From positions 1,283 through 65,282 of the forward strand of contig CAZEFH010000003.1 of NCBI GenBank assembly GCA_964511435.1: a stretch of 64,000 nt of DNA, in the 5' to 3' direction. This stretch comes from an uncultured Candidatus Saccharibacteria bacterium. Its GTDB lineage: Bacteria; Patescibacteriota; CPR2; UBA1875; CAIMLA01. The position numbers were made by a program, and so were the translations under genes. Below are positions 11,238-53,919 of this stretch, piece by piece (position 1 is the stretch's first letter; every line of letters starts with the position of its first letter). A model generated the notes under the pieces. It had not been told where the DNA came from. It saw only the letters and a list, made by a program, of their open reading frames with translations, and ran no database searches.

Positions 11238-11958
11238 GGCTATATTTCTTGATAAATCTACGATAACGATTGTTGAGAGCAGCCATTTCTAGGAATTGCA
11301 GACCGACACGATAGAAGGGGAAAGCGCGGAAAATATTTCCAACCATTCTAAAATCAGCCATTACACCCTGCCAGTAATCCATCTTCTCGTGCTTTGGGGT
11401 GGCGTAAAGATTCGGTAGGTAGACACTGATAAACGTTTTACCGCGGTCTAGAAATGAATCGTTCATTAGTACTTCGAGGCCATAGCCGATACGGGGCTTG
11501 GTCCAGATATTGTAGTCAGCCAGCATTTTCTTTTTGATGCAGCGCTCACCACTAACGAAGTCCATTTTGAACCATTTGTAGATATTCGAGGAATTGCCTC
11601 GAATACTGAGAGTCCAATCAACGAGATTGGTTAGGACCGGAATCGCAAGATCAGTTACGTTCTCGGCTGTAAGATGCTTAAGATCGGCATCGAGAAGCAT
11701 CACCACATCGTTTTTTGCATATTTAAGTCCATATTTTACAGCTAAAGTTTTGCCTAAAGAGTCCTTATGAACGTGTACGTGGGCCTTGTATTTTCGGGCA
11801 ACTTCGACGGTATTATCGGTACAACCGTCGCAGACCACAACTACGTCGTCAACCATCGGATGGTTACACACAATCTTTAGAACATTGCCGATACGATTTT
11901 CTTCATTACGAGCTGCGATGATGACGCTGACTTTTTTCTCTCTTGCTTCCATATGCAC
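11224..11958 (-). CDS. Family 2 glycosyltransferase (polyprenyl-phosphate sugar transferase-like)
   Basis: VSVIIAARNEENRIGNVL…VVVCDGCTD…LLDADL is the GT2 DxD-type N-terminal signature. 244 aa. Confidence 0.7.
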   Translation of the reverse strand: MHMEAREKKVSVIIAARNEENRIGNVLKIVCNHPMVDDVVVVCDGCTDNTVEVARKYKAHVHVHKDSLGKTLAVKYGLKYAKNDVVMLLDADLKHLTAENVTDLAIPVLTNLVDWTLSIRGNSSNIYKWFKMDFVSGERCIKKKMLADYNIWTKPRIGYGLEVLMNDSFLDRGKTFISVYLPNLYATPKHEKMDYWQGVMADFRMVGNIFRAFPFYRVGLQFLEMAALNNRYRRFIKKYSHEEA

Positions 11959-12004
11959 ATTCTACCTGATTTTACGCTATAATTGTACTATAAAGAGGGA
12001 AATC

Positions 12005-13318
12005 ATGAGAATTGCTTACCTTACCGACACATATCAGCCCGAAGTGAATGGAATTGTGACTAGTATTACAAACTTTACCGAGAGACTAGCTGCTGCTGGT
12101 CATGAAGTCCTGATTATTGCGCCGAAGTATAACAAGAAGAAGGACCATCCACTGCCTAGGATTAAGATTAAGAGGTACAAAAGCTTCTCTTTTGCAACCA
12201 ATAAGGAGACGCGCATCGCTTACCCGTCAGTTATTGGAATTATTTCAGACCTTCGAGAATTTAAGCCTGACATCATACATATTCAAACACCGATGAGCAT
12301 CGGTGTTACCGGGGTAATTGCGGCGAAAATTCTGGGAATCCCCAGTATTCAGACCTATCACACATATATTCCTGACTTTATGATTTATGTTAGCCCCTAT
12401 AATCTACTAGGTTTTGGGAAAATGGCTAATGCAATCGCGAGTTCTCGTTTCGCAAAGGCAATTATTAAGTCTGATACATATAAGTTGCTTGAGGAGACCG
12501 GCGATGGTATTACGCGTCGTTCAGAAGTAATTTCGGCGCTAAAGAAGCTTCGCCGCCGCTTCACTCGCCCTGGAGAAAATAGGTTTTCTGATCGGATGGC
12601 ATGGGATATTACCCGTTTTCTGTATGGTAAATCAGACATTGTACTGACGCCTTCTGTAGCTCTAGCGAAGCTGCTCACTCGTCACCGTGTCGGAGTTCCA
12701 GTACTGGACATGAGTAATGGTATTGAGTACGACCACTTCAAAAAGAAAAACCGATATTTTATCAGGAACAGGATAATATATGTCGGTCGCCTAGGACTTG
12801 AAAAGGGAATTGATGTAGTAGTAAAGGCTTTTGCTCTGGCAAAAAAACAGAACCCTGAGCTGAAACTAGACCTATATGGTGATGGTCCTGCCAAGGAAAT
12901 GCTCCATCAGCTAGCCCAGAAACTAGGTATTGAAGATAGTATCCACTTTGTTGGTTTTGTTTCACGCGCCGAGATTAAAAGGTCTTTGAAGCGAAATGAC
13001 TGTTTTGTGACAGCGAGTACAATGGAGACTCAGGGTCTCGTAATTCTCGAGGCGATGGCGGCAGGACTTCCAGTAATTGGGGTGAATGCACTTGCGGTTC
13101 CTGAGCTAGTTCACGACGGGGAAAACGGATATCTAGTAGAGCCACATAACTATAAGCAAATGGCAGAAGCAATGCTAAAACTAACAGAATCAGCCTCAAG
13201 AAACAGGGAATTTGGTAATAAATCCTCTGAATATGCCGAGGTCCACAATGTCACACACTGTGCCGAGAAACTTGAGAGTGTCTACGGAAATCTTCTAGCA
13301 GGAAAATACAAGAAATAA
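12005..13318 (+). CDS. Family 4 (GT-B) glycosyltransferase
   Basis: The start is revised to ATG 12005 (MRIAYLTDTYQPEVNGIVTSI), which has an RBS (aagaggga). The track ORF starting at 11786 overlaps the divergent GT2 gene. The C-terminus has the GT4 motif EAMAAGLPVIG. Confidence 0.75.
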   Translation: MRIAYLTDTYQPEVNGIVTSITNFTERLAAAGHEVLIIAPKYNKKKDHPLPRIKIKRYKSFSFATNKETRIAYPSVIGIISDLREFKPDIIHIQTPMSIGVTGVIAAKILGIPSIQTYHTYIPDFMIYVSPYNLLGFGKMANAIASSRFAKAIIKSDTYKLLEETGDGITRRSEVISALKKLRRRFTRPGENRFSDRMAWDITRFLYGKSDIVLTPSVALAKLLTRHRVGVPVLDMSNGIEYDHFKKKNRYFIRNRIIYVGRLGLEKGIDVVVKAFALAKKQNPELKLDLYGDGPAKEMLHQLAQKLGIEDSIHFVGFVSRAEIKRSLKRNDCFVTASTMETQGLVILEAMAAGLPVIGVNALAVPELVHDGENGYLVEPHNYKQMAEAMLKLTESASRNREFGNKSSEYAEVHNVTHCAEKLESVYGNLLAGKYKK

Positions 13319-13719: not shown

Positions 13720-14175
13720 TTATTCAAAGTTCTTTAGTTCGCGCTGGGCATCGAGGTTAATATCGTGCTCACGTAGAGCACTGCGTTTATTGTGCAGTTT
13801 TTTGCCTCGAGCAAGAGCAATTTCAAGCTTGATTAGTCCGTGCGAGAAGTATATCTTGACTGGGACAATGGTAAATCCCTGGGCTTCAACTCGACCAATA
13901 AGAGAGTCAATTTCAGTGCGTTTTAGAAGTAAGCGACGGGCGCGAGTCGGCTCTGCATTATTCTGGGCAGCTGGTTTGTAGGGTGAAATATGAGCATTGT
14001 TGAGCCAGATTTGACCATCTTTGACAGTCGCAAAGGCTTCTTTGAGTGAAATGTGGCCATCACGAATAGACTTCACTTCCGGTCCAGTGAGCTCGATTCC
14101 AGCCTCATACTCCTCGAGGAGTTCATAATCGAAGCGGGCTTTTTTATTCTCGGCGATGATTTTGATTGCCTTCAT
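13720..14175 (-). CDS. smpB: SsrA-binding protein SmpB
   Basis: 151 aa. IAENKKARFDYELLEEYEAGIELTGPEVKSIR…GQIWLNNAHISPY…LLLKRTEI is the canonical SmpB sequence. It lies 3.5 kb from ssrA. Confidence 0.9.
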   Translation of the reverse strand: MKAIKIIAENKKARFDYELLEEYEAGIELTGPEVKSIRDGHISLKEAFATVKDGQIWLNNAHISPYKPAAQNNAEPTRARRLLLKRTEIDSLIGRVEAQGFTIVPVKIYFSHGLIKLEIALARGKKLHNKRSALREHDINLDAQRELKNFE

Positions 14176-15900: not shown

Positions 15901-18189
15901 TTACTCTGCGAAACTATATAGAGTACCACTAGCAAAAGTGTAAATCACCTTTGCAGTGTCATCTGCGTAGACTGCAGAAGCTCCGGAGAAGGTGTCGCTG
16001 AGATATTCGCCAACATATTTACCCTCAGCATCAATACGAACGATACGTTTCTCGCTGGCTTCAGAAATGTATAGGCCAGTAGTGTCTTCATTGGTAAATA
16101 CATGTGTAGCTGCTTTGATGGTGATAGGCAGGTTGGAAAGCGAATATTCTTGTTTCTTGCCACCGAGATACTGAATAACTTCACCATTTGCCTTCATAGC
16201 GTATACGTTACTATCAATTGCTAGTGAGATTGCGCCAGCTACGTTGCTACCATCGTTAATATATTCACCCCGGGCGGAGTAACCAGTACTAGTCTTAGTT
16301 CTTTTGTATATTTTGCCATCACTAGTAAGGGTATATATATTAGTGGAAAAGGAGGCCATGGCAATAGCGTTTTCCATATCCCCGGCGATTGCCTGCTTTG
16401 TAAGTGTTAGATCCTTTGTATCAAATTCATAAACATTACCTTTGTCGGTATAGATTACGAGAGTTGACCGCACTGGCACAGCGGTGGCTGCAGTAATCTT
16501 GCCATCGATGCTTGGACTGTCGAGTACATTTGAACTTTCACCGCCATTGATGCTTACAGCAGCAATATTACCATTCGACTTACTTACCATATAGAGACTA
16601 TCATTGACCAGATATGGCCCGAATACATTCTCGCCGACGATACTTTTTACGTCAGCCATCTTGGTGGGGTTTGCGCGTGTTATTGAGAGGACTGTATCGA
16701 GGACGCTAGTTAGCTCTTTCTCAAGGGCAATTGCCTTGTCTTTATAATTTGCGTTCTTTTCGAGGCTTCTAGCAATATCGAGAGCGTTATTTAGAGTAGT
16801 TGCAGCACCGCTGCGGTCACCGCTATCTGCTTGACCCTTGCCGATTGTAAGCTTACTCTGAGCCTCGGTGTAACTTGCTTCAGCGAGTCTCTGGTCCTCG
16901 GCATTTTCCCGAATTCTCCAAACAGAAAAGACACTGACAACCAGTACTAGGAATACTGCCACAGCGACTATCAGCATAGACCGCTTGTTCTGATTAGTTT
17001 TTTTGAGCTTACTACTGAGGTTATCTTTGATTTTACCAGCTTTCGAAAAATCAATTTTTTCGAGCTTAAGCCACTTTGGCTTATTATCGGCTTCTTTGAT
17101 TCTGATAATGTTGTTGTTTTTAGGTGCATCTTCTACATAGGTGTTGGTGTGATCATTGATTTTGAGATCATCGATAGTTTCCTTTGCGGCTTCAACCTCA
17201 ACGACTTCCTTTGGCTGCTCGAAAATAACTGATGCTTCTTTTTTCTCTTTCTTCAGTTTCCCGCTCCTGGTGCCTCGAGCGACGTCGACGATAAAATCAT
17301 AAGTATCAAGCGTATGGTCGTGAATCCATGGCCACATCGTGGCGGTAACGAAACCGCCAAAAGCTGCGAGTCCTTTGCGAGTATAGAAAATAGCTTTTTG
17401 GACAAATGGGGCCGATGCCTCGATAGCGGTCTCAACAGGCTTATTGGGTTCAGCAAGCCAGACCTCATCCTGTATCTCGGTCAGCGTTTCCTCGGAGGCG
17501 GCCTCCGGAGTAATGCCTTCGATGATTAACAGCGAATTGGGCTGCAGGTCGGTACTGTTCCCTTCGAGCAGGTCAGCGATATGACTAATCGCTACCTTGG
17601 GCTGGAATTCTTCCACATAGCGCTGAAGCTCATCCTTGGAAATATGGTAAAAGACTCCAGGAGTGACAAAGACAACTTTATCTCCTTCTAGTAGATCAAA
17701 GATAACGAAGTTCTGAAATGTGCGTAGAGGATTAATGCTGTCGCCGTTCCCGTCTTTTGGAATCAGACTGTCTTTGCCCCCACGATAAAGATGGGCTTCG
17801 ACCTTGCCGGTCTGGGCAACATAGATACCTTCGTCGTTATGGACTGCTAGGATGGCGTGGAGATTGCCCATCCAGTGGATATTGCCATTGTGAGTGGCCT
17901 CAGCGAGCTCTTCATTCACTCTTGCGAGAGCCGCTTCAAAGCTAGCGGAGGCGTCTTTGGTTAGGTCCTGATAATATTCGCCATGAAAAGCATCGATGAT
18001 AAGCTCAGCGATTTCTTCGGCGCTCTCGGACGCAGCATTGACATTTACTAGGGCGTAAATCGAGCCATGGCCACGTTCATCTATATCGGCGGGGATGTGT
18101 TCATAGCTAGTAGCGATGCCTTGGTGTCGGCGACTACGCTTCGACTCGCTCAAAAGTTTTGCGGTTCTCGCAATGATTTTTTTCTGCAT
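15901..18189 (-). CDS. Membrane-anchored protein with an N-terminal PP2C-like (Ser/Thr phosphatase-like) cytoplasmic domain and a C-terminal beta-propeller-like extracellular domain
   Basis: 762 aa. The N-terminal region …IYALVNVNAAS…HWMGNLHAILAVHNDEGIYVAQTGKVEAHLYRGGK resembles the PP2C core (cf. GNKLYVANVGDSRA). There is a single TM helix (MLIVAVAVFLVLVVSVFSVW). The C-terminal 300 aa have repetitive beta-strand-like repeats. Confidence 0.4.
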   Translation of the reverse strand: MQKKIIARTAKLLSESKRSRRHQGIATSYEHIPADIDERGHGSIYALVNVNAASESAEEIAELIIDAFHGEYYQDLTKDASASFEAALARVNEELAEATHNGNIHWMGNLHAILAVHNDEGIYVAQTGKVEAHLYRGGKDSLIPKDGNGDSINPLRTFQNFVIFDLLEGDKVVFVTPGVFYHISKDELQRYVEEFQPKVAISHIADLLEGNSTDLQPNSLLIIEGITPEAASEETLTEIQDEVWLAEPNKPVETAIEASAPFVQKAIFYTRKGLAAFGGFVTATMWPWIHDHTLDTYDFIVDVARGTRSGKLKKEKKEASVIFEQPKEVVEVEAAKETIDDLKINDHTNTYVEDAPKNNNIIRIKEADNKPKWLKLEKIDFSKAGKIKDNLSSKLKKTNQNKRSMLIVAVAVFLVLVVSVFSVWRIRENAEDQRLAEASYTEAQSKLTIGKGQADSGDRSGAATTLNNALDIARSLEKNANYKDKAIALEKELTSVLDTVLSITRANPTKMADVKSIVGENVFGPYLVNDSLYMVSKSNGNIAAVSINGGESSNVLDSPSIDGKITAATAVPVRSTLVIYTDKGNVYEFDTKDLTLTKQAIAGDMENAIAMASFSTNIYTLTSDGKIYKRTKTSTGYSARGEYINDGSNVAGAISLAIDSNVYAMKANGEVIQYLGGKKQEYSLSNLPITIKAATHVFTNEDTTGLYISEASEKRIVRIDAEGKYVGEYLSDTFSGASAVYADDTAKVIYTFASGTLYSFAE

Positions 18190-18373
18190 TTATTAGGCCT
18201 TAATACTTAGGAAACTATAACACTTTCTGCTATCGTTGGCAAATATTTCGATTGCTATATTTTCCTTGTAATGGAGAAGAAAAAGTGTAAGATAGTGTCA
18301 TGTTTCTCACGTAGAAATGCACCGCGTCTACGGACGCTACATCATCCAACTACTGTAGAGGGGTAGGATCATC

Positions 18374-19291
18374 ATGTATAACGGACACCGCATGGTTTGT
18401 GAGGATGGTTGGTACGTCCAGACAGGCCGGGATGGAGTCCGGTTTGGTTATGGCGACCCTGTTCTCGACGAAGAGGATTCCATCTTGCTCGTGCCATTTC
18501 TGGTCGAGTTGTTCGTCCTCAGGCAGGACTACGTCAGGGACTTCCTCGATGCCACCAGTACTGCGAACCACGATGACTATGTTCTGCATCGACTCGTCCT
18601 GAGTCGACAGACAAGAGGAAGTCATCCCTATCACTATCTTGTGATTCAGAGGACGCGCGGAGAGGACTACCTCTTCGGTTTTACGGGCTCTGAATCTCGC
18701 AAGCTTAAGGAGGGACGCGATCGGTGTATCGTGATTCCGGGGAAGGCGTTGAAGCAGATCGCTGCCTCTGGATCTCGCTTGATTCAGGGGATTGGCTACA
18801 GGGCCACTATCGACGATGTCGACTGGAGGCTTTACGGTCATCTCCTGGTATCTAGTCCTGACGAAGGTCCTCGCAGGCCGGGACGAGTCCGGTTCTACCT
18901 GAATGATCACTCGGTGGTCATCAAGACGAAGCCGGATGGTCCTTGGCCGGAGCTGTGGCTGGCTGACAAAGAGGTTCTGCTTCGGGTCTTCCACGACTTC
19001 TCTCATCTTGGGGGCGCTGACAGCGTGAAGATCAGTGAGGTCTGGGACTCCGATAGCTTGCCAGTCACCTATTCGTATGTCATCAAGGGCTTCGGTGGCG
19101 AGTTCACACTCGAGCTCAGTGCAGTCATCCAGGAGGAGAGCGTCAGAAGCGCTATTATCCAGGGGGACTATGAGCTCTTTGATCACCTTGAGAATCTTCT
19201 CGAGATGTTCTGGGATCTCAGCTGCTACTCAGATGACTACAGCTTCAGCGACTACGATGACGACGACGGAGATGTCAGGTCACAGATCTAG
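18374..19291 (+). CDS. Hypothetical protein (GC-rich islet), acidic C-terminal tail
   Basis: 305-aa ORF in a 55-60% GC segment. The + frame has GC-biased third positions and evenly spread aromatics. It ends DYDDDDGDVRSQI. The overlapping minus-strand ORF 18350..19186 is judged antisense noise. Confidence 0.45.
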   Translation: MYNGHRMVCEDGWYVQTGRDGVRFGYGDPVLDEEDSILLVPFLVELFVLRQDYVRDFLDATSTANHDDYVLHRLVLSRQTRGSHPYHYLVIQRTRGEDYLFGFTGSESRKLKEGRDRCIVIPGKALKQIAASGSRLIQGIGYRATIDDVDWRLYGHLLVSSPDEGPRRPGRVRFYLNDHSVVIKTKPDGPWPELWLADKEVLLRVFHDFSHLGGADSVKISEVWDSDSLPVTYSYVIKGFGGEFTLELSAVIQEESVRSAIIQGDYELFDHLENLLEMFWDLSCYSDDYSFSDYDDDDGDVRSQI

Positions 19292-19300
19292 GGAGGAGCT

Positions 19301-19429
19301 ATGACTGAGCAGGCCGCGAACACTATCGGCTACATCGTCCTCGGTGGTTTGGGAGTCTTGCTCCTCTTGATGGCTGCGGTCTTCAAGGTCGGCAAGGGTG
19401 CCCAGAAGTTCTACAAGAATCTCGACTGA
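19301..19429 (+). CDS. Small hydrophobic peptide (42 aa, single TM)
   Basis: An RBS (gggaggag) lies 5 nt upstream of the ATG. The product is MTEQAANTIGYIVLGGLGVLLLLMAAVFKVGKGAQKFYKNLD. GC-rich, like the preceding gene. Confidence 0.4.
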   Translation: MTEQAANTIGYIVLGGLGVLLLLMAAVFKVGKGAQKFYKNLD

Positions 19430-19440
19430 GAGGGGGAGAC

Positions 19441-19677
19441 ATGTTCGTTTCGAATGGAGCAGCAACCACGATCGTTGTTGCTGCGGTTGTCGGTCTGGTG
19501 CTTCTAAGCTCGGCCATCCTCAAGGGTGTTTTCTGGGAAGAGAACATCGAGGAGCTCACGGGTGAGTCCCCGACTCAGCGCCATGGCGCCCAGGAGGAGA
19601 TCGATCTGGGTCAGGCCTTCGCCGTCGAGAATGGCCGCGACCCAATCATCACGACCCCAGCCCTGCCCTGGCAGTAG
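19441..19677 (+). CDS. Small membrane protein (78 aa, N-terminal TM)
   Basis: An RBS (gagggggag) lies upstream. The N-terminus is hydrophobic (VVAAVVGLVLLSSAIL). GC-rich. Confidence 0.4.
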   Translation: MFVSNGAATTIVVAAVVGLVLLSSAILKGVFWEENIEELTGESPTQRHGAQEEIDLGQAFAVENGRDPIITTPALPWQ

Positions 19678-19713
19678 TTCGTGCCTTTCCTGGGAACAGG
19701 GAAAGTATTACGG

Positions 19714-19751
19714 AACCGGCCAGTCGCGTACCAGCGACGGGCCGGTTTTTC
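19714..19751 (+). terminator. Rho-independent terminator closing the GC-rich three-gene cassette
   Basis: accggccagtcgcgtaccagcgacgggccggttttt: a GC-rich hairpin followed by a T5 run. Confidence 0.7.
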
Positions 19752-19797
19752 GTTTGTCTACTAGAATCATATTTTTAGATAAATTAGTATACAGAGT

Positions 19798-20046
19798 ATG
19801 TATACAGAAATTAATGAAACTGTGAAAATGCTAGCACTTTTTAACAACGGAAGTGTTATTCCGCAGAAATTCCGCTGGCACAACCGTGACTATGTCGTGA
19901 AAGAGGTTAGTCTGGCATACCAGCAGCGTGAGGGTCGCTCTGTTAATTATTATTTCAGTATCGAGACCACGGATGGTGGTGTTTTTAAAATCTGTTATAA
20001 CGATGAAGGTTTGGATTGGAAACTACTCGAGATTTGGAATCAGTAA
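19798..20046 (+). CDS. Hypothetical small protein (82 aa)
   Basis: AT-rich ORF MYTEINETVKMLALFNNGSV… sitting between two GC-rich segments. No recognisable motif. Confidence 0.4.
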   Translation: MYTEINETVKMLALFNNGSVIPQKFRWHNRDYVVKEVSLAYQQREGRSVNYYFSIETTDGGVFKICYNDEGLDWKLLEIWNQ

Positions 20047-20121
20047 TACTGTATTGAAAGAGTGGTAATTTTAAGGTAAAATGCCAGCGTCAGTCCATAG
20101 ATCGAAGGGTGGTGAAGTGAT

Positions 20122-20529
20122 ATGTCTAGAATTATCGGAGACCTCCGTCTCCCGGTACGGCGTATCCGCTACTATCCTGAAGCTAGGGCAGAAGTGGTTA
20201 TTGCCTACCCTAGTCGAGTGCGGGAGTGGGTTCCGGGCGAGAAAGTCACCTTCTGGGCAGAGTATTCTCGGAGCAGGAGGCGTCGGGGGTCGTTCTATGT
20301 TGCTCGCGATGAGCACGACGCCATGATCACGAGTGCCGTGGTGGTCCCCAACATCCGTGAGTTTACCTACGTGGTAACTGTGTCGAAGCTTTTCGGCACT
20401 GTTGGGATGGGGACGGCTGAGGTCATCAAGTTCTATGAGAATCAGTTCTCAGGTGACCGGCAGGCTAAGGTGTCGCAGTTCGGCCTTCTCGTTCTCGAGT
20501 TTCGGATTGTGGATAGCCGCTACCTCTAG
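20122..20529 (+). CDS. Hypothetical protein (GC-rich islet), 135 aa
   Basis: The ORF has GC-rich third positions (MSRIIGDLRLPVRRIRYYPEARAEVV…). Its stop codon lies inside a perfect 15-bp palindrome. Confidence 0.4.
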   Translation: MSRIIGDLRLPVRRIRYYPEARAEVVIAYPSRVREWVPGEKVTFWAEYSRSRRRRGSFYVARDEHDAMITSAVVVPNIREFTYVVTVSKLFGTVGMGTAEVIKFYENQFSGDRQAKVSQFGLLVLEFRIVDSRYL

Positions 20530-20556
20530 TGGGGCCCCGCTGGGGCCCCACTAGAG
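20524..20556. repeat. Perfect GC-rich palindrome / hairpin (15-bp stem, 3-nt loop)
   Basis: ctctagtggggcccc-gct-ggggccccactagag. No T-run follows. It lies between the GC-rich ORF and dinB. Confidence 0.8.
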
Positions 20557-20615
20557 AAAGAGAAGCTATAATCTGTATACTACTATTGTACACCAATCGG
20601 GTGTACAATTTTTAT

Positions 20616-21827
20616 ATGCGTAAGATTCTTCACATTGATATGAATAGTTACTTTGCTACAGTCGAACAGCAGGCTAATCCTAAGCTTCGTGGCAAGCCAG
20701 TGGCTGTCCTTGGAAGCAAGGCGAAGCGGAGCATTATTGTAGCTGCAAGTATCGAGGCGAAGAAATATGGCGTCAAAACTGGCACCAGGATAGAGGAGGC
20801 ACCCAGGCTATGCCCGGAGATTATCTTTGTGCATGGAGAACCGCGTAAGTATTCTTGGGTAACGAAGAAATTTATTGAAATATTCGAAGACTACACTGAC
20901 AAAGTGGAGATATTTTCGATTGATGAGTGTTTCCTCGATGTCACCGCCACAGAGCGTATTTATGGTGGGGCGGAGAGAATCGCTCGTGAGATTAAGCGGC
21001 GAATTCGCGAAGAAATTGGCCAGAATATTTCTTGTTCTGTTGGTATTGCGCAGAACAAATTCCTGGCAAAGCTCGGTAGTGACATGCAGAAACCGGATGG
21101 ACTAACGATATTTACATCAGAAAATACTGACAAAATCCTGCTTACAACACCGCTACGAGATTTTTGTGGCATTGGTAGTCGAATCCACGCGCGACTTGGT
21201 GCTCTCGGCATTGAAACCGTAGAAGAGCTTCGAAAATACCCGAATAATTTACTAGCGAAAGAATTCGGTATAGCGACGGGAGAAAAACTGAAGCGAATGT
21301 CGTATGGGATGGATAACTCTCCAGTGACTAGCTGGCACGAGCGGGCTGATGCGAAATCTTATGGCCACTCAAGAACGCTGAATAAAAATATCACCGACCG
21401 AGAGGAAATTAAAAAGCATATCCTGTTACTATCCGAGAAGATAGCCTCAAGGATGCGCAAAGACGGGATGATGGGGCGTGAGATCGGTCTCTGGCTACGT
21501 TATGGTGATTTCGGGGGTACTGGTGAGAGACATCGTGGTAGTCAGTGGACGCACGACGGTCTGGAAATCTATGAATCTGCGGTTCGGATTTTGAGTAAGA
21601 TATCTTTACGTGCGCCAGTTAGGGCAATCGGAGTCTATGTTGCCGGGATCCAAAATGAGAAGAATGTTCCACGCAGTCTGTTACTTGCCGATAAAACTAA
21701 TGACAAGATTCTGGCGGCAATGGATGCGGTCAATGGTCGTTTTGGTGAAACTGTCTTGACCAGAGCTCGTCTGGCTGGGACGAAGATCAAAGAAGTGGTT
21801 TCGGGGATGGGAAGGGATAAATTTTGA
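20616..21827 (+). CDS. dinB: DNA polymerase IV (Y-family translesion polymerase)
   Basis: The start is revised to ATG 20616 (MRKILHIDMNSYFATVEQQANPKLRGKPVAV…). It contains the Y-family motifs SIDECFLD and GIGSRIHARL. 403 aa. Confidence 0.85.
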   Translation: MRKILHIDMNSYFATVEQQANPKLRGKPVAVLGSKAKRSIIVAASIEAKKYGVKTGTRIEEAPRLCPEIIFVHGEPRKYSWVTKKFIEIFEDYTDKVEIFSIDECFLDVTATERIYGGAERIAREIKRRIREEIGQNISCSVGIAQNKFLAKLGSDMQKPDGLTIFTSENTDKILLTTPLRDFCGIGSRIHARLGALGIETVEELRKYPNNLLAKEFGIATGEKLKRMSYGMDNSPVTSWHERADAKSYGHSRTLNKNITDREEIKKHILLLSEKIASRMRKDGMMGREIGLWLRYGDFGGTGERHRGSQWTHDGLEIYESAVRILSKISLRAPVRAIGVYVAGIQNEKNVPRSLLLADKTNDKILAAMDAVNGRFGETVLTRARLAGTKIKEVVSGMGRDKF

Positions 21828-21829
21828 GG

Positions 21830-21858
21830 TTGACACATCTAGTCTAGAATAATATATT
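21830..21858 (+). promoter_or_regulatory. Consensus sigma70-like promoter (TTGACA-17-TATATT) driving non-coding unit A
   Basis: ttgaca catctagtctagaataa tatatt lies immediately after the dinB stop. No ORF follows. Confidence 0.5.
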
Positions 21859-21865
21859 TTAGCTA

Positions 21866-22394
21866 CGCTGAAAGGCTCCTTTACTCGGGAGGGGCCAGAT
21901 TAAGCTGAAAGCGCAGCACCTGACCGTTCCATCCCTTCCTTGCGATGCACACGCGTAGTAAGTGACCCGGGTGAACGTGCTGGAAAATGTTGATAGTTGC
22001 AAGGTCAACGTCTGTCCCGAGTAGGCGGGTTCCTTGCAGAATAGACCTGTGCAGGGTAGTAGGCGGTGGTAACGAACGTTGTGGCCACGCAAACTGAGGG
22101 AGATTACCCATCCCGGTAATCCCTACCTCTACTGCATACAGGTTTAGTCTCGGTGGGAGTTTGTAGCTCCTTGTACACACCGTACCGAGGCGGGCCATCT
22201 GGAGAGCCTCCGAGTGTCGTTTCCTCGGGAATTCCAGCCGTGTCGGTTACTTCCGACACGTTTCCCTCGTCCGAAAGGACGGTCTCCCATGCGCAAGTGA
22301 AGCACTGGAGAGTCACGGGGGAATGCCGGCAGAGATTGTCGACCGTTAGAAATGGTCGACTTACCCGTACTTAGGGCCTGCCGGCCTCTTCTTT
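21866..22394 (+). ncRNA. Candidate structured non-coding RNA A (about 530 nt, GC-rich), identity unknown
   Basis: About 58% GC with no ORF longer than 105 aa in any frame; the short ORF translations are not protein-like. It is bounded by the promoter above and by hairpins (gtcgaccgttagaaatggtcgac; ggcc-tgcc-ggcc followed by tcttcttttatt). The segment gaaaggacggtctcccatgcgcaagtg loosely resembles the RNase P P4/CR-I region, but the match is insufficient to call it. Confidence 0.35.
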
Positions 22395-22396
22395 TA

Positions 22397-22425
22397 TTGA
22401 CAACAAGCTAAATGTTTGATAATAT
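22397..22425 (+). promoter_or_regulatory. Consensus sigma70-like promoter (TTGACA-17-TAATAT) driving non-coding unit B
   Basis: ttgaca acaagctaaatgtttga taatat. No ORF follows. Confidence 0.5.
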
Positions 22426-22432
22426 CTCATAT

Positions 22433-22972
22433 CGGTATGCCCACTAGGTGTGCCATTTTACATGTCAGCGAAAGCTCAAGCCGATGTTAGTAGTCGGCAA
22501 GCACCGTACCGAAAAGGCCCGCTACAAGGTGGTGATGAATGCTCTGAGAGTGCTCTCGGTTCATTTGACACCATTAGGGTACTGCCGACCTTGAGGGGGA
22601 GGAGATAGTACGGGGGAGTATAGGTGAGAATCCTATCGCTGACGCCAAATACTCTACGCCAGATGGCGTTGTACCACATATTTACCCCAAACCCATGGGA
22701 ACATACCATGGATGATGGGACTACCACCCCCAGCAATTCCTGAAGAGTAAAGGGCATAGCTGCAGAATGTAGCGAACCCGGGTGGTAGTATGAGTGTCCT
22801 CAACCGGCGCAAGCCGTGAGGACCTGCCTACCGAGGGCTTCGGCATCTCGGTGGCAAGGTGCGAACCACGTCCAGTGAAGATTCGCACCTGGCCCCTGCG
22901 GGCCTTCGTAGCGTCCCTCCAAGTCAGAGCGGAGACGTTGCGAAGGTCCAACGGGGCCTTTCGCTTTTATTT
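22433..22972 (+). ncRNA. Candidate structured non-coding RNA B (about 540 nt, GC-rich), identity unknown
   Basis: About 57% GC and non-coding in all frames. It ends at a hairpin followed by a T-run (gcgaaggtccaacggggcctttcgc ttttattt). It contains GGUGCG…UUCGCACC and CGAAAAGGCCCGCUACAAGGUGG, which loosely recall RNase P P12 and CR-I but are not convincing. Confidence 0.35.
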
Positions 22973-23698
22973 AGTAGGTTTTTCAGCAATAACATTAAGA
23001 TTTCGAGTTTTGCGGTAAAAATTATAGATTTGAACGTTAGAAAAACCTGCATTTGTGATTGATTTTTTCAATTCTCTTATAGTCCAAGCATGGAAATACC
23101 TTTTTGTGACCAGCTTGCCAGTACTAAGTTTCCAAGGACGATAAAAGTCGCCGAAGTGAAGACTATTATTACTAAAAAATGATTTAACGATTCTTTTCAA
23201 ATACTCGGTTTTATTCCAAAAATACCATGTTTCAACGAATGCCCAGCCCTCAGGCTTTGTAACTCTGTACATTTCGTCCAAGAATTTTTGCCTGGTCTCC
23301 TTAGAGGGTATGTGATGGATTGTTGCAATTGAAACTACGATATTGAAGGTATCCGATTGATAAGGAAGGTTTGTAGCATCACCGACAAGAAAATGAGCTT
23401 TTGGGTACTTCTTCTTTGCAATCCTGATAAGTTCTTCGCTTATGTCTATACCATAGTATTCAATTTCGCGGTCAATAAACATTTCGGAAACGCGTCCGGC
23501 ACCACATCCTATGTCTAATACCTTGAGTGTTTTATTTTTCGGAAATTTCTGCAGAATATCATTTAGTGTTTCTGTGACTTCTATCCAATTATATTTTCGG
23601 GTACTCGCAAACTGCTCGGCGATTAGGTTATAATCATCTCTAGTCTTTAGTATTAATTTTTCAGCAATCTCTTTTTTCATGTATTGTTCCTTCGTCAT
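22967..23698 (-). CDS. Class I SAM-dependent methyltransferase
   Basis: VLDIGCGAGRVSEMF (motif I), then FLVGDATNLPYQSDTFNIVVS. 243 aa. Confidence 0.65.
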   Translation of the reverse strand: MTKEQYMKKEIAEKLILKTRDDYNLIAEQFASTRKYNWIEVTETLNDILQKFPKNKTLKVLDIGCGAGRVSEMFIDREIEYYGIDISEELIRIAKKKYPKAHFLVGDATNLPYQSDTFNIVVSIATIHHIPSKETRQKFLDEMYRVTKPEGWAFVETWYFWNKTEYLKRIVKSFFSNNSLHFGDFYRPWKLSTGKLVTKRYFHAWTIRELKKSITNAGFSNVQIYNFYRKTRNLNVIAEKPTK

Positions 23699-23770
23699 TC
23701 TGAACAGAGTGAAGAATCTAGATACTCCGGGGTTCCTGGATCCTTCGTTTCACTCAGGATGACGATAAAA

Positions 23771-25306
23771 ATGGATATAACCAAACAAATAATTCTTAAA
23801 CTTATCTCTGAAAAGGCGCAGACTCGGGCTGATTTTCGTCGTGTCGTGGCAAAGGTATATAGAGATAATAACACGTCCGGGTATCACGCGAATATCGCCC
23901 TTCGTGAAATTTATGATCAGATGGTAGAATGCGAAGAAATTGAGTCAAACGAGAGCCTAGAAAAAATTCTAACAACGAAGAAAATGCGTTCTCTCTCGGG
24001 GGTATCAGTTATTACTGTTCTGACGAAGCCATATCCTTGCCCAGGTAAATGTATCTATTGCCCTACGCTAGATGATGTGCCGAAAAGCTACCTTCCTGAC
24101 GAACCAGCGGTAATGCGGGCTATTCTAAATAAATATGACGGCGGCAAGCAGGTAGAGACACGTCTCAAGTCACTTGCGAAACAGGGACACCCAATTGATA
24201 AGATTGAATTAATCGTAATTGGTGGTACTTTTAGTCATCTTCCTAGGGACTATCAAGAAGAGTTTATCAAGGGCTGTTTCGATGCGCTGAATGGCTTCGT
24301 TTCTAAAAACCTAGCCGAGGCAAAAGCTGCTAATGAAACAGCGAAATCTCGTTGTGTCGGTCTGACCCTCGAGACGCGTCCGGACCACATTGCAGAGGAA
24401 GAAGTACAGTGGTTTCGTTACCTTGGTGCCACTAGAGTAGAGCTGGGTGTCCAGACAATTTATGACGAAATCTTAGCAAAGAATGGTCGGGGAGAAAAAG
24501 TTGCCGACACTATAAAGGCGACTAAATTACTTAAAAATGCTGGCTTTAAAATTTGCTACCACTTGATGCCAAATCTTTTTGGCTCTAATCTCAGGCTGGA
24601 CAAGAAAATGTTCCAGGAAATCTTTATAAATCCAGATTTCTGCCCTGACTACATCAAAATTTATCCCTGTATGGTGCTAAAAGATACACCCCTATATGAA
24701 CTGTGGCAGAAAGGTGAATACAAAAGTTATACAGACGATGAGCTAAAAGAGTTAATCAAATACGTCAAGGAAATAGTACCTCCTTGGGTGCGAATAATGC
24801 GGACGATTCGAGATATACCGGCTCCAAACATTGTTTCCGGTTCGATACTTTCAAATATGCGCCAGATTGTCCTTGCTGAGCTTGAGAATGAGGGTAAAAA
24901 GTGCGGATGTATTCGTTGCCGAGAAGTTGGAGTGAAAGATTCGGAAACAGATATAAATGTAAAATTATTTATAGATGAGTATGAAGCATCTTGCGGTACC
25001 GAATATTTTCTTAGTTTTGAAGGCGATAGTAGAGAAACGCTATATTCCCTCTTACGCTTGAGACTCGCTGATATTGCTATCATCCGCGAAGTCCATACCT
25101 ATGGTCAGCAAATTGAGGTAGGTGAAAAAGGGGATACACAGCATCGGGGATTCGGTCGAAAACTAATCGCTGAAGCAGAAAGTGTTGCGAAAGAAGCGGG
25201 GTTCTCAAAAATTGCCGTTATCTCAGGCGTCGGCGTCCGTAACTACTACCGCAAGTTTGGCTACGTGCTGGTGGGCGAATATATGGTGAAAAACCTCGAC
25301 AAATAA
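23771..25306 (+). CDS. ELP3-like protein: N-terminal radical SAM domain fused to a C-terminal GNAT acetyltransferase domain
   Basis: The start is revised to ATG 23771 (MDITKQIILKLI…). The radical-SAM cysteine triad is CPGKCIYCP. The C-terminal GNAT motif is HRGFGRKLIAEAESVAKEAGFSKIAVISGVGVRNYYRKFGY. This architecture is diagnostic of Elongator Elp3 homologues. Confidence 0.7.
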   Translation: MDITKQIILKLISEKAQTRADFRRVVAKVYRDNNTSGYHANIALREIYDQMVECEEIESNESLEKILTTKKMRSLSGVSVITVLTKPYPCPGKCIYCPTLDDVPKSYLPDEPAVMRAILNKYDGGKQVETRLKSLAKQGHPIDKIELIVIGGTFSHLPRDYQEEFIKGCFDALNGFVSKNLAEAKAANETAKSRCVGLTLETRPDHIAEEEVQWFRYLGATRVELGVQTIYDEILAKNGRGEKVADTIKATKLLKNAGFKICYHLMPNLFGSNLRLDKKMFQEIFINPDFCPDYIKIYPCMVLKDTPLYELWQKGEYKSYTDDELKELIKYVKEIVPPWVRIMRTIRDIPAPNIVSGSILSNMRQIVLAELENEGKKCGCIRCREVGVKDSETDINVKLFIDEYEASCGTEYFLSFEGDSRETLYSLLRLRLADIAIIREVHTYGQQIEVGEKGDTQHRGFGRKLIAEAESVAKEAGFSKIAVISGVGVRNYYRKFGYVLVGEYMVKNLDK

Positions 25307-25343
25307 GGGCTTTTGTTATACAATACGGGGTCCGAAACACCAG

Positions 25344-25748
25344 TTGTCGTCAATCCGAAGGAAGGTGCCGTCGGTGTACCCTGAACCGAAGATATACTCG
25401 AAAGAGGAACAGATTGTCTGGGGGCTTGTCTTTACGGCAGTCTGTCAGGTTTGTCAGACTCTCATCGAGAGTTTGATTGCATCCGGGAAGACTCCCGAGG
25501 AGGCATCACGCGCCGCGATTCGCTTCGTTTTGCCGATGCTTTCCAGTGCTGAGTTTGACACGGAGCAGGCGCTCATGGACGATGTGCGGAGTAAGCTTCG
25601 CTATCTCTGGCTCGCAACCGATCAAACAGACAAGCTCTTCTCCTCTGTTTTGGCCGAGGAGGGCTGGGTTGATCCGGCGAGTTTCTACTCAGTTGAGCTG
25701 ACCACTGAAGGTAAGTACCGCGTCCGGCCCTACAGTTTCGTAATGTGA
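25344..25748 (+). CDS. Hypothetical protein (GC-rich islet), 134 aa
   Basis: GC-rich ORF with an RBS-like ggaaggtg upstream. The ATGA start/stop overlap with the next gene implies translational coupling. Confidence 0.4.
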   Translation: MSSIRRKVPSVYPEPKIYSKEEQIVWGLVFTAVCQVCQTLIESLIASGKTPEEASRAAIRFVLPMLSSAEFDTEQALMDDVRSKLRYLWLATDQTDKLFSSVLAEEGWVDPASFYSVELTTEGKYRVRPYSFVM

Positions 25749-26173
25749 GGGAGGTGAACGGAATGGGAATCAAGTCCCGAACGGAGATTCTCGGCGCTTT
25801 CAATCTAGTGAAACAGGTTGAAGTCATGACACGAACGTTTCTCTACGCTCGTGACAGCAAGTCCTACAAGCGGGCAGTGTCACTCCTTGAAGTAGCCACC
25901 AGGGGAGAGCTCGTTGAGCTCATCACCTACGCCTACCTCAGGGGCGGCCACTTCGAGGACATGAATGCCGTCGAGAGACGGATTCGTGAACTTGCTGATC
26001 TGGCTACAGTCATCGTCGGAGATTCGCCGCAGGTGGAGCTGACAAGCTTCGTCCTGTCTTCGGCGAACCTCTACCTCGAGCCTGTACCTGTTGGCGACGT
26101 CACGACGCTTGAGCTGGTCAGGAGGGAAGACCTCGAGGAGTTCCTCGCCAGTGCCGGTGTCGGCACCTACTAG
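25745..26173 (+). CDS. Hypothetical protein (GC-rich islet), 142 aa
   Basis: GC-rich ORF (MREVNGMGIKSRTEILGAF…), followed by a large nested GC-rich hairpin (ggtccaccc…gggtggacc) at 26166-26216. Confidence 0.4.
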   Translation: MREVNGMGIKSRTEILGAFNLVKQVEVMTRTFLYARDSKSYKRAVSLLEVATRGELVELITYAYLRGGHFEDMNAVERRIRELADLATVIVGDSPQVELTSFVLSSANLYLEPVPVGDVTTLELVRREDLEEFLASAGVGTY

Positions 26174-26355
26174 GTCCACCCGGGTCGCGCGAACGCATAT
26201 GGTTCGCCCGATCAGGGTGGACCATTTGCGTTAAAAGCTCTCGACAGAAAGGCAAAAATCTGATATAATTTACTGGCTATTTTGAGTTATTCTTCGAGCA
26301 AAGCGAGAAGTTCTCACATGCGTTCGAACAATAACTTTTTATTTTGGAGAAACCT

Positions 26356-28176
26356 ATGAATATCCGTAACATTGCTATCATCGCGCACGTTGACCATGGG
26401 AAAACTACCCTCGTCGATGGCTTTCTGAAACAGACCAAGGTCTTTCGTGAGAACGAGGCCGCCTTTTCGGCTTCACTGATTATGGACTCAGGGGATCAGG
26501 AGCATGAACGTGGCATCACTATTACCGCCAAGAATACCGCGGTAATGTGGAACGACGTGAAGATTAATATCGTCGATACCCCAGGTCATGCCGATTTTGG
26601 TGGCGAGGTAGAACGTACGCTAAATATGGCTGACGGTGCCATTCTCGTCGTCGATGCCCAAGAGGGACCGATGCCACAGACCAAATTCGTCCTACGTAAG
26701 GCGCTAGAACTCGGTCTAAAGATGATTGTCGTCATTAATAAGATTGATAAGCGTGACGCTCGCATCGGCTATGTTATAGACAAGATTCACGACCTATTCC
26801 TAGATCTTGCTACTGACATGGACCAGCTAGAGTTCCCGATTTACTATGCCATTGCCAAGGAAGGTAAATCTTGGGATGAGATGCCACATGACTTTAGCGA
26901 AAAGGCTGACCTCTCACCGATTTTTGAGGCAATTGTGAAGTATGTTCCAGCTCCGGAAACTGACAAAAACAAACCTTTTCAAATGCTAGTTACTACTCTT
27001 GAGCGCGATAGCTATCAGGGTAAGTATGCCATTGGACGTATCAGCCATGGTTTTGCTAAACCTGGTATGACTCTCACGCTGATTAACCGTGAAGGAAATC
27101 AGGAAAGTGCGAGAATTGAAAAAGTATTTGTTTCACAGGGACTCAAGAAAGTGGAAGTTAGTACCGCTGAACCAGGTGACATCGTCGCGCTGACCGGTAT
27201 AAAGAATGCTTCTATTGGCGACACACTAGCCGATCCGGCTGCACCAGAAGCACTCCCAACTATTGAAATCGAAGAACCAACCCTCAAGATGAGCATTGCT
27301 GTAAATACCTCGCCTTTTGCTGGCAAGGAAGGCAAGTTTGTTACTAGCCGTCAAATACTGGACCGCATCAACCGTGAACTTGAGACTAACGTTTCACTCA
27401 AGATGGAGCAGGGAAATGATGCTGACTTTATCCTTTCTGGTCGTGGCGAACTCCATCTCTCAGTATTTATCGAAACCCTTCGTCGTGAAGGCTTCGAACT
27501 TCAGGTGGGGAAACCCCAGGTAATTATCAAGGAAGTTGACGGCGTAAAGATGGAGCCGCTTGAAGAGCTTACGGTTGACGTTGCGACAGAGTATGTTGGT
27601 GGCGTTACTGGTGAAGTTGGTCGTCGCAAGGGTAATCTGATTCAGCAGATTGAAAATTCAGACGGCACAACTCGCCTAATTTTCGAAATTTCTACTCGTG
27701 GGACTCTAGGACTTAGGAATCAGCTGCTGACTCTCTCTCGTGGGACTGCCGTAATGAACTCGCTATTCCTTCGCTTTGAGCCATATACAGGGGCAATTCC
27801 ACGACTTCGTAATGGAGTGCTAATCGCATCTGACGCTGGTAAGGCCGTGACTTATGGATTAAATATCGCCCAGGGTAGAGGGGTGGTCTTTGTCGCTCCT
27901 CAGACTCAGGTATATGCTGGGATGATCGTTGGTCTCAACTCGCGTGATGAGGATATAGATATCAATGTCTGTAAAGAGAAGAAGCTAACAAATACTCGTG
28001 CTTCTGGATCTGACGATACTCTTCAGCTTACTCCTCCGACGATATTTAGTCTTGAGCAGTCACTTGACTTTTTGGAAGACGACGAGTTGCTCGAAGTAAC
28101 ACCAGTGAGCTTGCGTCTAAGAAAGAAGTATCTCGATCCGAACATTCGCAATCGGATGCGTAAACAAACCAAATAA
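26356..28176 (+). CDS. typA: Translational GTPase TypA/BipA
   Basis: [21 protein letters not shown] (G1), [12 protein letters not shown] (G3) and NKIDK (G4). About 606 aa with EF-G-like domains. The start is placed at ATG 26356, which has a GGAGA RBS; the track's TTG at 26344 is less likely. Confidence 0.85.
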
Positions 28177-28292: not shown

Positions 28293-28571
28293 ATGCCAGT
28301 TTCGGTGATAGCCCCAGACGGTACGAGTGTCTGGCAGATGAACCTCGCGTACGTTGCCATCGACCCCGACAAGAACGAGGCAGCCATCAGACTGCTAAAC
28401 CAGCAGTACGTCGAAATCAACCCCGACAAACAGGTGGAGCTCGTCTGGGTCGATAGCGAGATTCAGATCTGGCCCTATCCGGAGGGAGCAAGTAAACAGC
28501 TCCCGATGGTGACCGACCGGGTCTTGATCGACGGCGACGGTACCTGGGGAATCTATCCCGAGAGAATCTAG
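28293..28571 (+). CDS. Hypothetical small protein (GC-rich islet), 92 aa
   Basis: GC-rich ORF MPVSVIAPDGTSVWQMNLAYVAIDPDKNEAAIRLL… with an RBS aaggag upstream. Confidence 0.4.
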   Translation: MPVSVIAPDGTSVWQMNLAYVAIDPDKNEAAIRLLNQQYVEINPDKQVELVWVDSEIQIWPYPEGASKQLPMVTDRVLIDGDGTWGIYPERI

Positions 28572-28583
28572 GAGGTGGCAGGT

Positions 28584-28874
28584 ATGGTCAAGTTCTGCAA
28601 GAACGAGGGTAGCGGTGTTCGTGGCCGAGTGGTCACCATCCTTAGGGATGAGGGTATGATGCGGGTTCTGACAGAGGGAGACACCATCTCTCTCCAGTTC
28701 TCGAAGTGCCTCATACCGGTCGAATTCCATGACGGCATCGTCTGCTACGATGAGCCTGGCTGCTCAGATGGCGTGGAGCCGAACTCTCCTGTCATGGTTT
28801 TCCCTGATGGTCACTGGGTGACTCAGGAAGCTCTTGACCACGCTCCGAAAGTCGACACCCGCGTCGACACTTAG
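28584..28874 (+). CDS. Hypothetical small protein (GC-rich islet), 96 aa
   Basis: ATG 28584 is preceded by a ggagg RBS. The product is MVKFCKNEGSGVRGRVVTILRDEG… It is followed by a GC-rich terminator hairpin. Confidence 0.4.
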   Translation: MVKFCKNEGSGVRGRVVTILRDEGMMRVLTEGDTISLQFSKCLIPVEFHDGIVCYDEPGCSDGVEPNSPVMVFPDGHWVTQEALDHAPKVDTRVDT

Positions 28875-53880: not shown

Positions 53881-53919
53881 TGGGAAAAGCATAAAATATA
53901 TGTATAACTTGTGAGGGTG

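Follow-up and report, generated by a model that had tools for sequence, protein, structure and literature searches.

Few bacterial RNA classes larger than 400 nucleotides (nt) are known, and to our knowledge none has been described from Saccharibacteria. The large RNAs ROOL, GOLLD, and OLE have been reported to form higher-order assemblies, and in enterobacteria the leuZ 3' external transcribed spacer acts as an RNA after transfer RNA (tRNA) processing. Here we analyze a 64,000-nt stretch of DNA from an uncultured Candidatus Saccharibacteria bacterium (contig CAZEFH010000003.1; the whole stretch is referred to as the window), in which the interval 21830-22972 (~1.1 kb) forms the gap between the stop codon of dinB and the 3' end of a convergent class I methyltransferase gene. 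An initial annotation had proposed that this interval holds two tandem, promoter-driven, GC-rich noncoding units of about 530 nt each, candidates for large structured RNAs. Our data favor, with a probability of roughly two-thirds, a lineage-restricted stable-RNA locus made of two plus-strand transcription units (units 1 and 2), confined to one Saccharibacteria subclade, whose transcripts are probably processed by the tRNA machinery. No catalogued RNA family matches either unit, and they are not RNase P RNAs.

Results

Synteny and noncoding evolution of the interval

The interval lies in a common gene order, i.e., a 762-amino-acid (aa) protein, a DUF6504 protein, dinB, the gap, the methyltransferase, Elp3, and typA. 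Relatives with a DinB 61 to 78% identical keep the layout, the dinB stop being followed by a promoter, GC-rich noncoding DNA, and the convergent methyltransferase gene. Where DinB is at least 61% identical, 0.5 to 1.9 kb follows dinB, with a GC fraction of 0.50 to 0.62 and almost no called genes; the sole exception is a 58-aa minus-strand open reading frame (ORF) in loci L163 to L165. The closest DinB proteins among the genome loci were those of L001 (76% identical) and L002 (72%; labeled Candidatus Saccharibacteria), placing the window in a Saccharibacteria-like lineage of the candidate phyla radiation. Searching the protein collection with DinB returned nothing closer than 78% except the same genome, and the best nonself match of the methyltransferase was 66% identical, its sole 100% match, L167, being again the same genome. 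The genomes of the candidate phyla radiation (CPR)/Patescibacteria are small and gene dense, so that 1.1 kb of conserved noncoding DNA is expensive and has probably been kept for a reason.

At the nucleotide level, nhmmer and blastn searches with both units gave no match in 78 dinB-anchored genome loci, and sensitive pairwise blastn and tblastx against the syntenic gaps recovered the terminator only. The interval looks orphan because such simple similarity searches miss the relatives' gaps; homology of the units emerged only from closer relatives, read by eye. No sequence similarity connects unit 1 to unit 2, or either of them to other parts of the window.

The gaps of L079 and L162 are 77 to 79% identical and are informative as to coding status. 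Their indels (1, 5, 2, 1, 1, 2, 6, 1... nt) are mostly not multiples of three and their substitutions are independent of phase (113/108/88), from which we conclude that the DNA of the interval is noncoding. Blocks of 96 to 98% identity alternate with blocks of 12 to 40%, and none of the relatives shares a conserved stop-free stretch with the window. Within the interval, ORFs with a start codon reach at most 105 aa and stop-free runs at most 121 codons, in both cases on the minus strand; none of the interval's ORFs has a Pfam match at E ≤ 1, and frame-specific GC periodicity across the interval had no steady phase and gave no usable signal.

The two units are separable, since L001 and L082 keep unit 2 with its own promoter while a sulfatase-family gene takes the place of unit 1 after dinB. 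In L001 this gene (11343-13226) is AT rich and encodes 627 aa.

Promoters, terminators, and predicted RNA strand

Both promoters (Table 1) were among the four best sites in a consensus scan of 11 kb. The scan total, 18 sites found versus 13.1 ± 3.6 expected, is by itself not significant, and the promoter evidence gains its weight from conservation across related loci. A TTGAC(A/G)-16/17-TAnnnT site lies 3 to 11 nt past the dinB stop in 10 of 19 related loci (8 distinct sequences). A second promoter is found 525 to 640 nt further downstream in L079, L080, and L162, and likewise in L163 at the place equivalent to the unit 2 promoter. At the other end, a GGGGCCAUGYCGGCC element homologous to the unit 1 terminator closes unit 1 in L079, L080, L162, L163, and L091, and the unit 2 terminator directly adjoins the stop codon of the methyltransferase gene. 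By their orientation, both terminators serve only the plus strand. Each unit hence has its own promoter and terminator at a position conserved between species, as expected of a structured noncoding RNA gene.

The plus strand is the predicted RNA strand by its better folding and by the CCA ends, promoters, and terminators, all of which are on it; it folds 22 to 28 kcal/mol more stably than the minus strand. Against dinucleotide shuffles, the folding z scores of units 1 and 2 were -4.4 and -8.7, and a second shuffle run of the plus strand gave -4.7 and -6.6, respectively. Adjacent GC-rich ORF cassettes likewise reach z values of about -5, so that GC content and z score alone are no evidence for RNA genes here, and the z score was dropped as a discriminator. 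Stems capped by GNRA or UNCG loops occur at 3.7 per kb in the interval versus 0.7 per kb in the window.

The initial annotation is thus borne out in its two tandem ~530-nt units, its lack of protein-like ORFs, its near-perfect sigma70 promoters at 21830 and 22397, and the hairpin/T-run that ends each unit (22374-22387 and 22942-22961). Its core idea of promoter-driven large structured noncoding RNA(s) finds support in the synteny, the noncoding substitutions and indels, and the compensatory changes and tRNA-like architecture described below. The GC content of 57 to 58% that it gave was overstated: such values are reached only in single 200-nt windows, compared to 53.5% for 21830-22972, 55.4% for unit 1, 54.7% for unit 2, and 43.3% for the whole window.

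Unit 1: maintained pairing in a candidate multidomain RNA

Side-by-side alignment shows unit 1 to be homologous in the window, L079, and L162. Common to the three copies are the 5' end ACGCUGAAA, the hairpin loop UACUCGG, and CCGGGnGA..GUG; a hairpin UGCnAGnUCAAC..CCGAGUnGG..CUnGCA, together with AGUAGGC, UCUAC, and UUGUAG; and a GACCGUUA..GGUC hairpin and the terminator. In the RNAalifold consensus of these sequences 89.4% of cells are paired, and 39 of the 152 pairs are changed on both sides, versus 16.3 ± 3.1 in column shuffles and 3 to 11 when the 3' partner is slid by 1 to 3 columns.

Pairing is also maintained in more distant copies. The long-range helix H1 reads GCCGGCAUGG / CCAUGCCGGC in L079 and L162, GCUGACAUGG / CCAUGUCGGC in L080, GCCGACAUG / CAUGUCGGC in L091, and GCCGGUAUGG / CCAUACCGGC in L163. 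Across the six sequences it is 93% paired, with G-C to A-U exchanges in L080 and L091 and a C-G to U-A exchange in L163. The 5' loop motif and the apical loop are complementary over 11 base pairs (bp) in the window, 9 in L079, 8 in L162 and L091, and 7 in L080 and L163, and A-U/G-C swaps preserve the match (UACUCGGGA/UCCCGAGUA in the window versus UACUCGGAA/UUCCGAGUA in L079; UGCUCGG/CCGAGC in L080). The stems of the hairpin that presents the apical loop (21998-22038) covary (helices 6 and 7 of the consensus).

These features would make unit 1 a multidomain folded RNA whose 3' domain is closed by a covarying, 8- to 10-bp long-range helix. The UACUCGG/CCGAGUA loop pairing could form within a single molecule, as a pseudoknot, or join separate molecules in a kissing contact.

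A covariance model of the unit 1 5' domain, R1, scored 169 to 200 bits on its three seeds (window, L079, and L162), its one extra match being a 12-bit noise hit at window positions 28771-28843. MAFFT alignments of four or six copies of unit 1 were poor except at the anchor motifs. A scan of viral contigs with the H1 pattern returned one match, L166, which lies in a very high-GC coding region and was discarded as chance.

Unit 2: an expanded tRNA-like element at the tRNA position of relatives

The leader hairpin of unit 2, followed by a U-rich tract and (C)AUG, is found also in L079, L163, and L001. Directly after it, a scan for a 7-bp acceptor stem with an adjacent 5-bp/7-nt T-arm and NCCA, run over both strands of the 64-kb window (128 kb), gave exactly one match, at 22464-22647, a minihelix ending in NCCA. 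This expanded tRNA-like element sits exactly between the conserved leader and the conserved hairpin-UUGUACC motif. Equivalent elements occupy the same site in L079 (109 nt), L163 (125 nt), L001 (146 nt), and L082 (145 nt) and also in L138 and L087, the expanded forms in relatives spanning 104 to 146 nt. Folded alone with three flanking bases (187 nt in total), the element has a minimum free energy structure built around a four-way junction (z = -3.8); its terminal stem comprises 8 bp, a hairpin stands in place of the D-arm, and the "anticodon" arm is ~110 nt long. The initial annotation had read unit 2 as a candidate structured RNA and had missed the tRNA-like element within it.

Real tRNAs are present at this position in relatives. 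The tRNA model RF00005 matched unit 2 of L079, L002, L087, L089, L090, L091, and L138 with 40 to 59 bits. In L091 the tRNAs carry the standard anticodons Gly-GCC and Glu-CUC, and for several relatives' matches ARAGORN gave odd anticodon loops. The T-loops of L079, L138, and L087 keep UUCGAGC or UUCGAAU. In the window interval, neither ARAGORN nor Rfam at E ≤ 10 found a canonical tRNA. Where L079 has its tRNA-like gene, the 77% identical L162 has unrelated sequence.

Among these relatives, four genes of ~105 nt have a class II tRNA shape with a long variable arm (L002 9868-9972, L087 5539-5639, L138 5570-5675, and L090 1973-2071). They share a conserved body, differ in their anticodon loops (CUGGCAG, UUAAAAA, CUGACAA, and one of 5 nt), and are not called by ARAGORN. 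They could be noncanonical or recoding tRNAs or nondecoding tRNA mimics.

Downstream of the element, the hairpin-UUGYACC motif is present in 9 loci, where it is 95.6% paired with 2 pairs changed on both sides, and is unique in the window. In the 3' domain, a terminal CCUUCG...CGAAGG plus GGCC..GGCC architecture is common to the window, L079, L162, L001, and L080, and a further T-arm/acceptor-like module was recognized by eye in the aligned 3' cores of L079 and L162. Beyond such motifs, alignment of the window's 3' core with those of L079, L162, and L080 was uninformative.

Table 1. Coordinates of the features of the dinB-methyltransferase interval and of its flanking genes in the window
Feature	Position	Strand	Description
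dinB (DinB-family polymerase)	20529-21827		IMS, IMS_C, and IMS_HHH_1 domains
Unit 1 promoter	21830-21858	+	TTGACA-17-TATATT; 11/12 consensus matches; begins 3 nt past dinB stop
Unit 1 RNA	21866-22396	+	~530 nt; start deduced from the -10 box, end at the terminator T-run
5' loop motif	21880-21890	+	UUUACUCGGGA, core UACUCGG; one loop-loop partner
Apical loop	22014-22026	+	GUCCCGAGUAGGC, core CCGAGUA; in hairpin 21998-22038; 11-bp complementarity to 21880-21890
Helix H1, 5' strand	22325-22332	+	GCCGGCAG; long-range helix closing the unit 1 3' domain
Helix H1, 3' strand	22378-22385	+	CUGCCGGC; overlaps the terminator hairpin
Unit 1 intrinsic terminator	22374-22396	+	Hairpin GGGCCUGCCGGCCU at 22374-22387, then U-run CTTCTTTTAT
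Unit 2 promoter	22397-22425	+	TTGACA-17-TAATAT; 10/12 consensus matches; extended -10 TG
Unit 2 5' leader	22434-22463	+	Hairpin GGUAUGCC..GGUGUGCC, then AUUUUACAU; flagged as terminator-like in the scan
Expanded tRNA-like element	22464-22647	+	184 nt; D-arm and anticodon arm replaced by long extensions
tRNA-like acceptor stem	22464-22470 / 22637-22643	+	7 bp, GUCAGCG/CGCUGAC
tRNA-like T-arm	22620-22636	+	AUAGG-UGAGAAU-CCUAU
tRNA-like discriminator G and CCA	22644-22647	+	GCCA
Unit 2 3' domain	22651-22972	+	~300-320 nt; row of very stable hairpins with GCAA and UUCG loops; z = -7.7
Conserved hairpin motif	22656-22675	+	ACGCC-AGAU-GGCGU, then UGUACC; 9 nt past the CCA end
Unit 2 intrinsic terminator	22942-22961	+	Hairpin, then CGCTTTTATT
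Class I methyltransferase	22967-23698	-	Convergent toward dinB

Discussion

Proposed maturation and points against a stable-RNA locus

Unit 2 (~530-540 nt) would follow the plan of a tRNA operon from which the canonical tRNAs have disappeared, in the order leader hairpin, tRNA-like element, 9-nt spacer, hairpin-UUGUACC motif, and hairpin-rich 3' domain. On this model, RNase P would cut the transcript at 22463/22464 and tRNA 3'-end processing would act after GCCA, freeing the tRNA-like RNA and giving the 3'-domain RNA a defined 5' end. The products may act in trans as stable structural or ribonucleoprotein RNAs.

A number of points weigh against a maintained stable-RNA locus. Full-length alignment of unit 1 is limited to 3 sequences and that of individual motifs to 6 to 9; with so few sequences (3 to 9), and no closer relatives in the collections, covariation has weak statistical support: the value observed for H1 (6 sequences) is reached in 19 of 500 shuffles, and that of the unit 2 hairpin motif (9 loci) in 24 of 500. 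The unit 1 consensus structure was derived from the same three-sequence alignment used to test it, and for this reason its pairing statistic is supportive rather than conclusive. Model R1 misses the distant copies of L080, L163, and L091; since it finds only its seeds, those copies are not alignable automatically. The window's unit 2 aligns with its relatives only at short motifs. Its T-loop, UGAGAAU, departs from the canonical UUCRANY and a hairpin replaces the D-loop, and the tRNA-like motif as such has a chance expectation of 0.67 per window in shuffles, so that the significance of the element lies in its position. Sequence turnover of the locus is much faster than that of the transfer-messenger RNA (tmRNA) in the same genomes, which also fits weak constraint.

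Alternative explanations

The main rival is that the locus is a decaying relic of a tRNA/stable-RNA operon, its tRNAs degenerated by insertions, its transcripts functionless, and its promoters and terminators merely retained. The relatives L091, L089, and L138 are still partly tRNA operons, with Rfam tRNA matches that the window lacks. The tRNA-like modules vary greatly in size and sequence between species, the L079 gene being replaced by unrelated sequence in L162 at 77% identity, and overall turnover is very fast. However, ~1.1 kb of GC-rich noncoding DNA has been kept in place in a compact genome while the flanking proteins stand at 61 to 78% identity, and the promoters, the terminators, the acceptor stem with its CCA, H1, and the loop-loop pairing have been maintained through compensatory changes; unit 1, moreover, has no sign of tRNA ancestry. 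This persistence despite sequence turnover disfavors decay, which we consider unlikely.

Protein-coding origins, i.e., decayed or horizontally acquired genes or small-protein genes, appear very unlikely. Neighboring GC-rich islands of the same composition hold ORFs with Shine-Dalgarno sites and fold almost as stably, and minus-strand stop-free runs in the interval reach 121 codons. Nevertheless, the L079/L162 indels and the lack of codon periodicity, together with the absence of any conserved stop-free stretch, Pfam match at E ≤ 1, or steady GC phase, speak for noncoding DNA; the same indel and substitution pattern and missing Pfam signal contradict the decayed genes that the initial annotation had listed as an option.

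We attach similarly little probability to a divergent member of a known large-RNA class (GOLLD, ROOL, OLE, HEARO/omega RNA, or a group I/II intron). In its favor are a GOLLD/ROOL-like size of 0.5 kb, the own promoter and terminator, the tRNA association, and a variable 5' and more conserved 3' part. With the 4227 models of Rfam 15, the whole window gave tmRNA only at the gathering score, and 21700-23100 (1.4 kb) gave three noise hits at E ≤ 10 (nse_sRNA, XIST A-repeat, and Atu_C9). The tmRNA (9773-10165) was found easily, with 84.8 bits. At E ≤ 5, the L079 locus gave its tRNA-like gene and one noise hit. The GOLLD, ROOL, OLE, HEARO, and raiA covariance models were without a match, and the Rfam comparison envisaged in the initial annotation (RNase P, introns, GOLLD, ROOL, and OLE) hence yielded no support at E ≤ 10 for any of the known large RNAs or the intron remnant that it had considered. 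None of 10 ORFs scanned (15901-28176) encodes an IscB, TnpB, intron-encoded, or Ole protein, and blastn against phage and plasmid collections gave no match. A group I/II intron was rejected in particular for lack of an Rfam match and of a reverse transcriptase, maturase, or homing endonuclease ORF in or next to the interval, which is flanked by two complete convergent genes. Literature searches for large structured RNAs or tRNA-like elements in Saccharibacteria/CPR bacteria returned nothing relevant.

A purely cis-acting region, a long convergent terminator or 3' untranslated region for dinB and the methyltransferase, would suit an interval between convergent genes whose last terminator abuts the methyltransferase stop. 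It is nonetheless highly improbable given that the terminators serve the plus strand only, that a separate consensus promoter, conserved between species, precedes each unit, and that L001 and L082 keep unit 2 and its promoter despite a sulfatase-family gene after dinB.

The P4 strands of RNase P RNA are universally conserved (GAAAGUCC... / ...ACAGAAnnCGGCUUA). That one unit is a divergent RNase P RNA has a negligible chance of being right, even though the size is roughly suitable and GAAAGGACGGUCUCCCAU (22274-22292) is P4-like, with AAAGUCCAAGUCUAC in L079/L162: the RNase-P-like strings that the initial annotation had pointed out, GAAAGGACGG in the window and AAAGUCCAAG in L079/L162, fall by eye in different alignment columns and are not conserved in the three homologues, and none of the RNase P models (RF00010, RF00011, RNaseP-T, archaeal, and nuclear) matches at E ≤ 10 in the window region or E ≤ 5 in L079, while tmRNA is easily detected in the same window.

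A possible new class of large RNAs

Going beyond a stable-RNA locus, units 1 and 2 may jointly be the first members of a new, Saccharibacteria-specific class of large ornate RNAs, with a self-associating unit 1 and a unit 2 bearing a tRNA-like handle. We advance this as a tentative proposal, less likely than not. The complementary loops of unit 1 would then mediate higher-order assembly, and the handle of unit 2, possibly CCA-tailed or chargeable, might serve maturation or docking, for instance to the translation or tRNA modification machinery (Elp3 and a Trm9-like methyltransferase are encoded adjacent).

The series seen across the loci, from canonical tRNAs of 75 to 79 nt through forms of 104 to 146 nt to the 184 nt of the window, shows tRNA genes passing into oversized tRNA-like modules within larger transcripts and offers a natural series for studying the co-option of tRNA scaffolds. 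According to a preprint (PMC10187176), cultivation and genetic manipulation have become feasible for some Saccharibacteria, which makes the prediction directly testable.

Neighboring genes and variable cassettes

The methyltransferase gene and the Elp3 gene (23684-25306, plus strand) form a divergent pair adjoining the tRNA-like locus. Elp3 (TIGR01211, 574 bits) is a radical-SAM/GNAT enzyme that modifies U34 of tRNA, and one source names a homologue of the class I methyltransferase TRM9. The two may constitute an mcm5U34 pathway; bacteria would not usually be expected to have one. At 26166-26344, the promoter and 5' leader of typA share 71 to 75% DNA identity with L001 and L002 over 134 to 194 nt and may represent a regulatory leader.

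GC-rich (54 to 59%) islands are located at 18374-19677, 20122-20529, and 25344-26173 and, on the minus strand, at 28395-28730, 33882-34322, and 45986-46450. The first three have their own promoter-like site, ATG starts with Shine-Dalgarno sequences, and terminators, and contain ORFs of 305/42/78 aa, 135 aa, and 134+136 aa, respectively. These ORFs had no accepted Pfam, PHROG, or NCBIfam match, with one subthreshold NCBIfam domain match. Three island segments fold unusually stably (z of about -5). The corresponding syntenic slots of relatives are filled with GC-rich cassettes unrelated to those of the window, and L002 is without the 20122-20529 cassette. Lying between core genes, the islands have the appearance of hypervariable cassettes of orphan genes. 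A further variable site of this kind is the slot upstream of dinB, occupied in L079 (9632-9967) by a member of the PF05635 "23S rRNA IVS protein" family and in L163 (2770-3084) by a GIY-YIG nuclease.

The tmRNA gene, on the minus strand, was missed by ARAGORN and lies 3.5 kb from smpB (13720-14175, minus strand). No tRNA gene was detected in the 64-kb window. A single ORF of 2738 aa spans 53911-62127.

Comparison with known RNA systems

Bacterial RNase P RNA resembles the units in being large, GC rich, structured, and transcribed from its own promoter; the units differ from it in that all Rfam RNase P models fail and the conserved P4 strands are missing. A functional link may exist in that the tRNA-like element would be a substrate of RNase P.

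GOLLD and ROOL are like the units in size (0.5 to 0.8 kb), in being free-standing with their own promoter and terminator and no associated ORF, and in their many helices, long-range or loop-loop contacts, association with tRNA genes, and variable 5' and more conserved 3' parts. The units differ by the lack of a covariance model match and of a phage match, by their location next to dinB on the core Saccharibacteria chromosome rather than in Firmicutes prophages, and by a much narrower known distribution and conservation limited to islands of 7 to 14 nt.

The tRNA-like element shares with tmRNA and the bacterial Y-RNA-like YrlA, whose tRNA-like domain is likewise assembled from both RNA ends, an acceptor stem formed from distant 5' and 3' segments, an adjacent T-arm, an NCCA end, and a large insertion where the D and anticodon arms would be. 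Unlike them, it has no G3-U70, no recognizable tag frame, no Rfam match, and a noncanonical T-loop; the real tmRNA of the window is elsewhere, at 9773-10165.

Compared to spacers of the leuZ type, the downstream RNA of unit 2 is ~320 nt long and highly structured (z = -7.7) rather than a short unstructured sponge, and the tRNA-like part in the window is no decoding tRNA. The organization is nevertheless the same, a non-tRNA RNA directly downstream of a tRNA-shaped element in one transcript, with real tRNAs in the relatives. From this arrangement, the 5' end of the unit 2 3'-domain RNA would be made by tRNA 3' processing.

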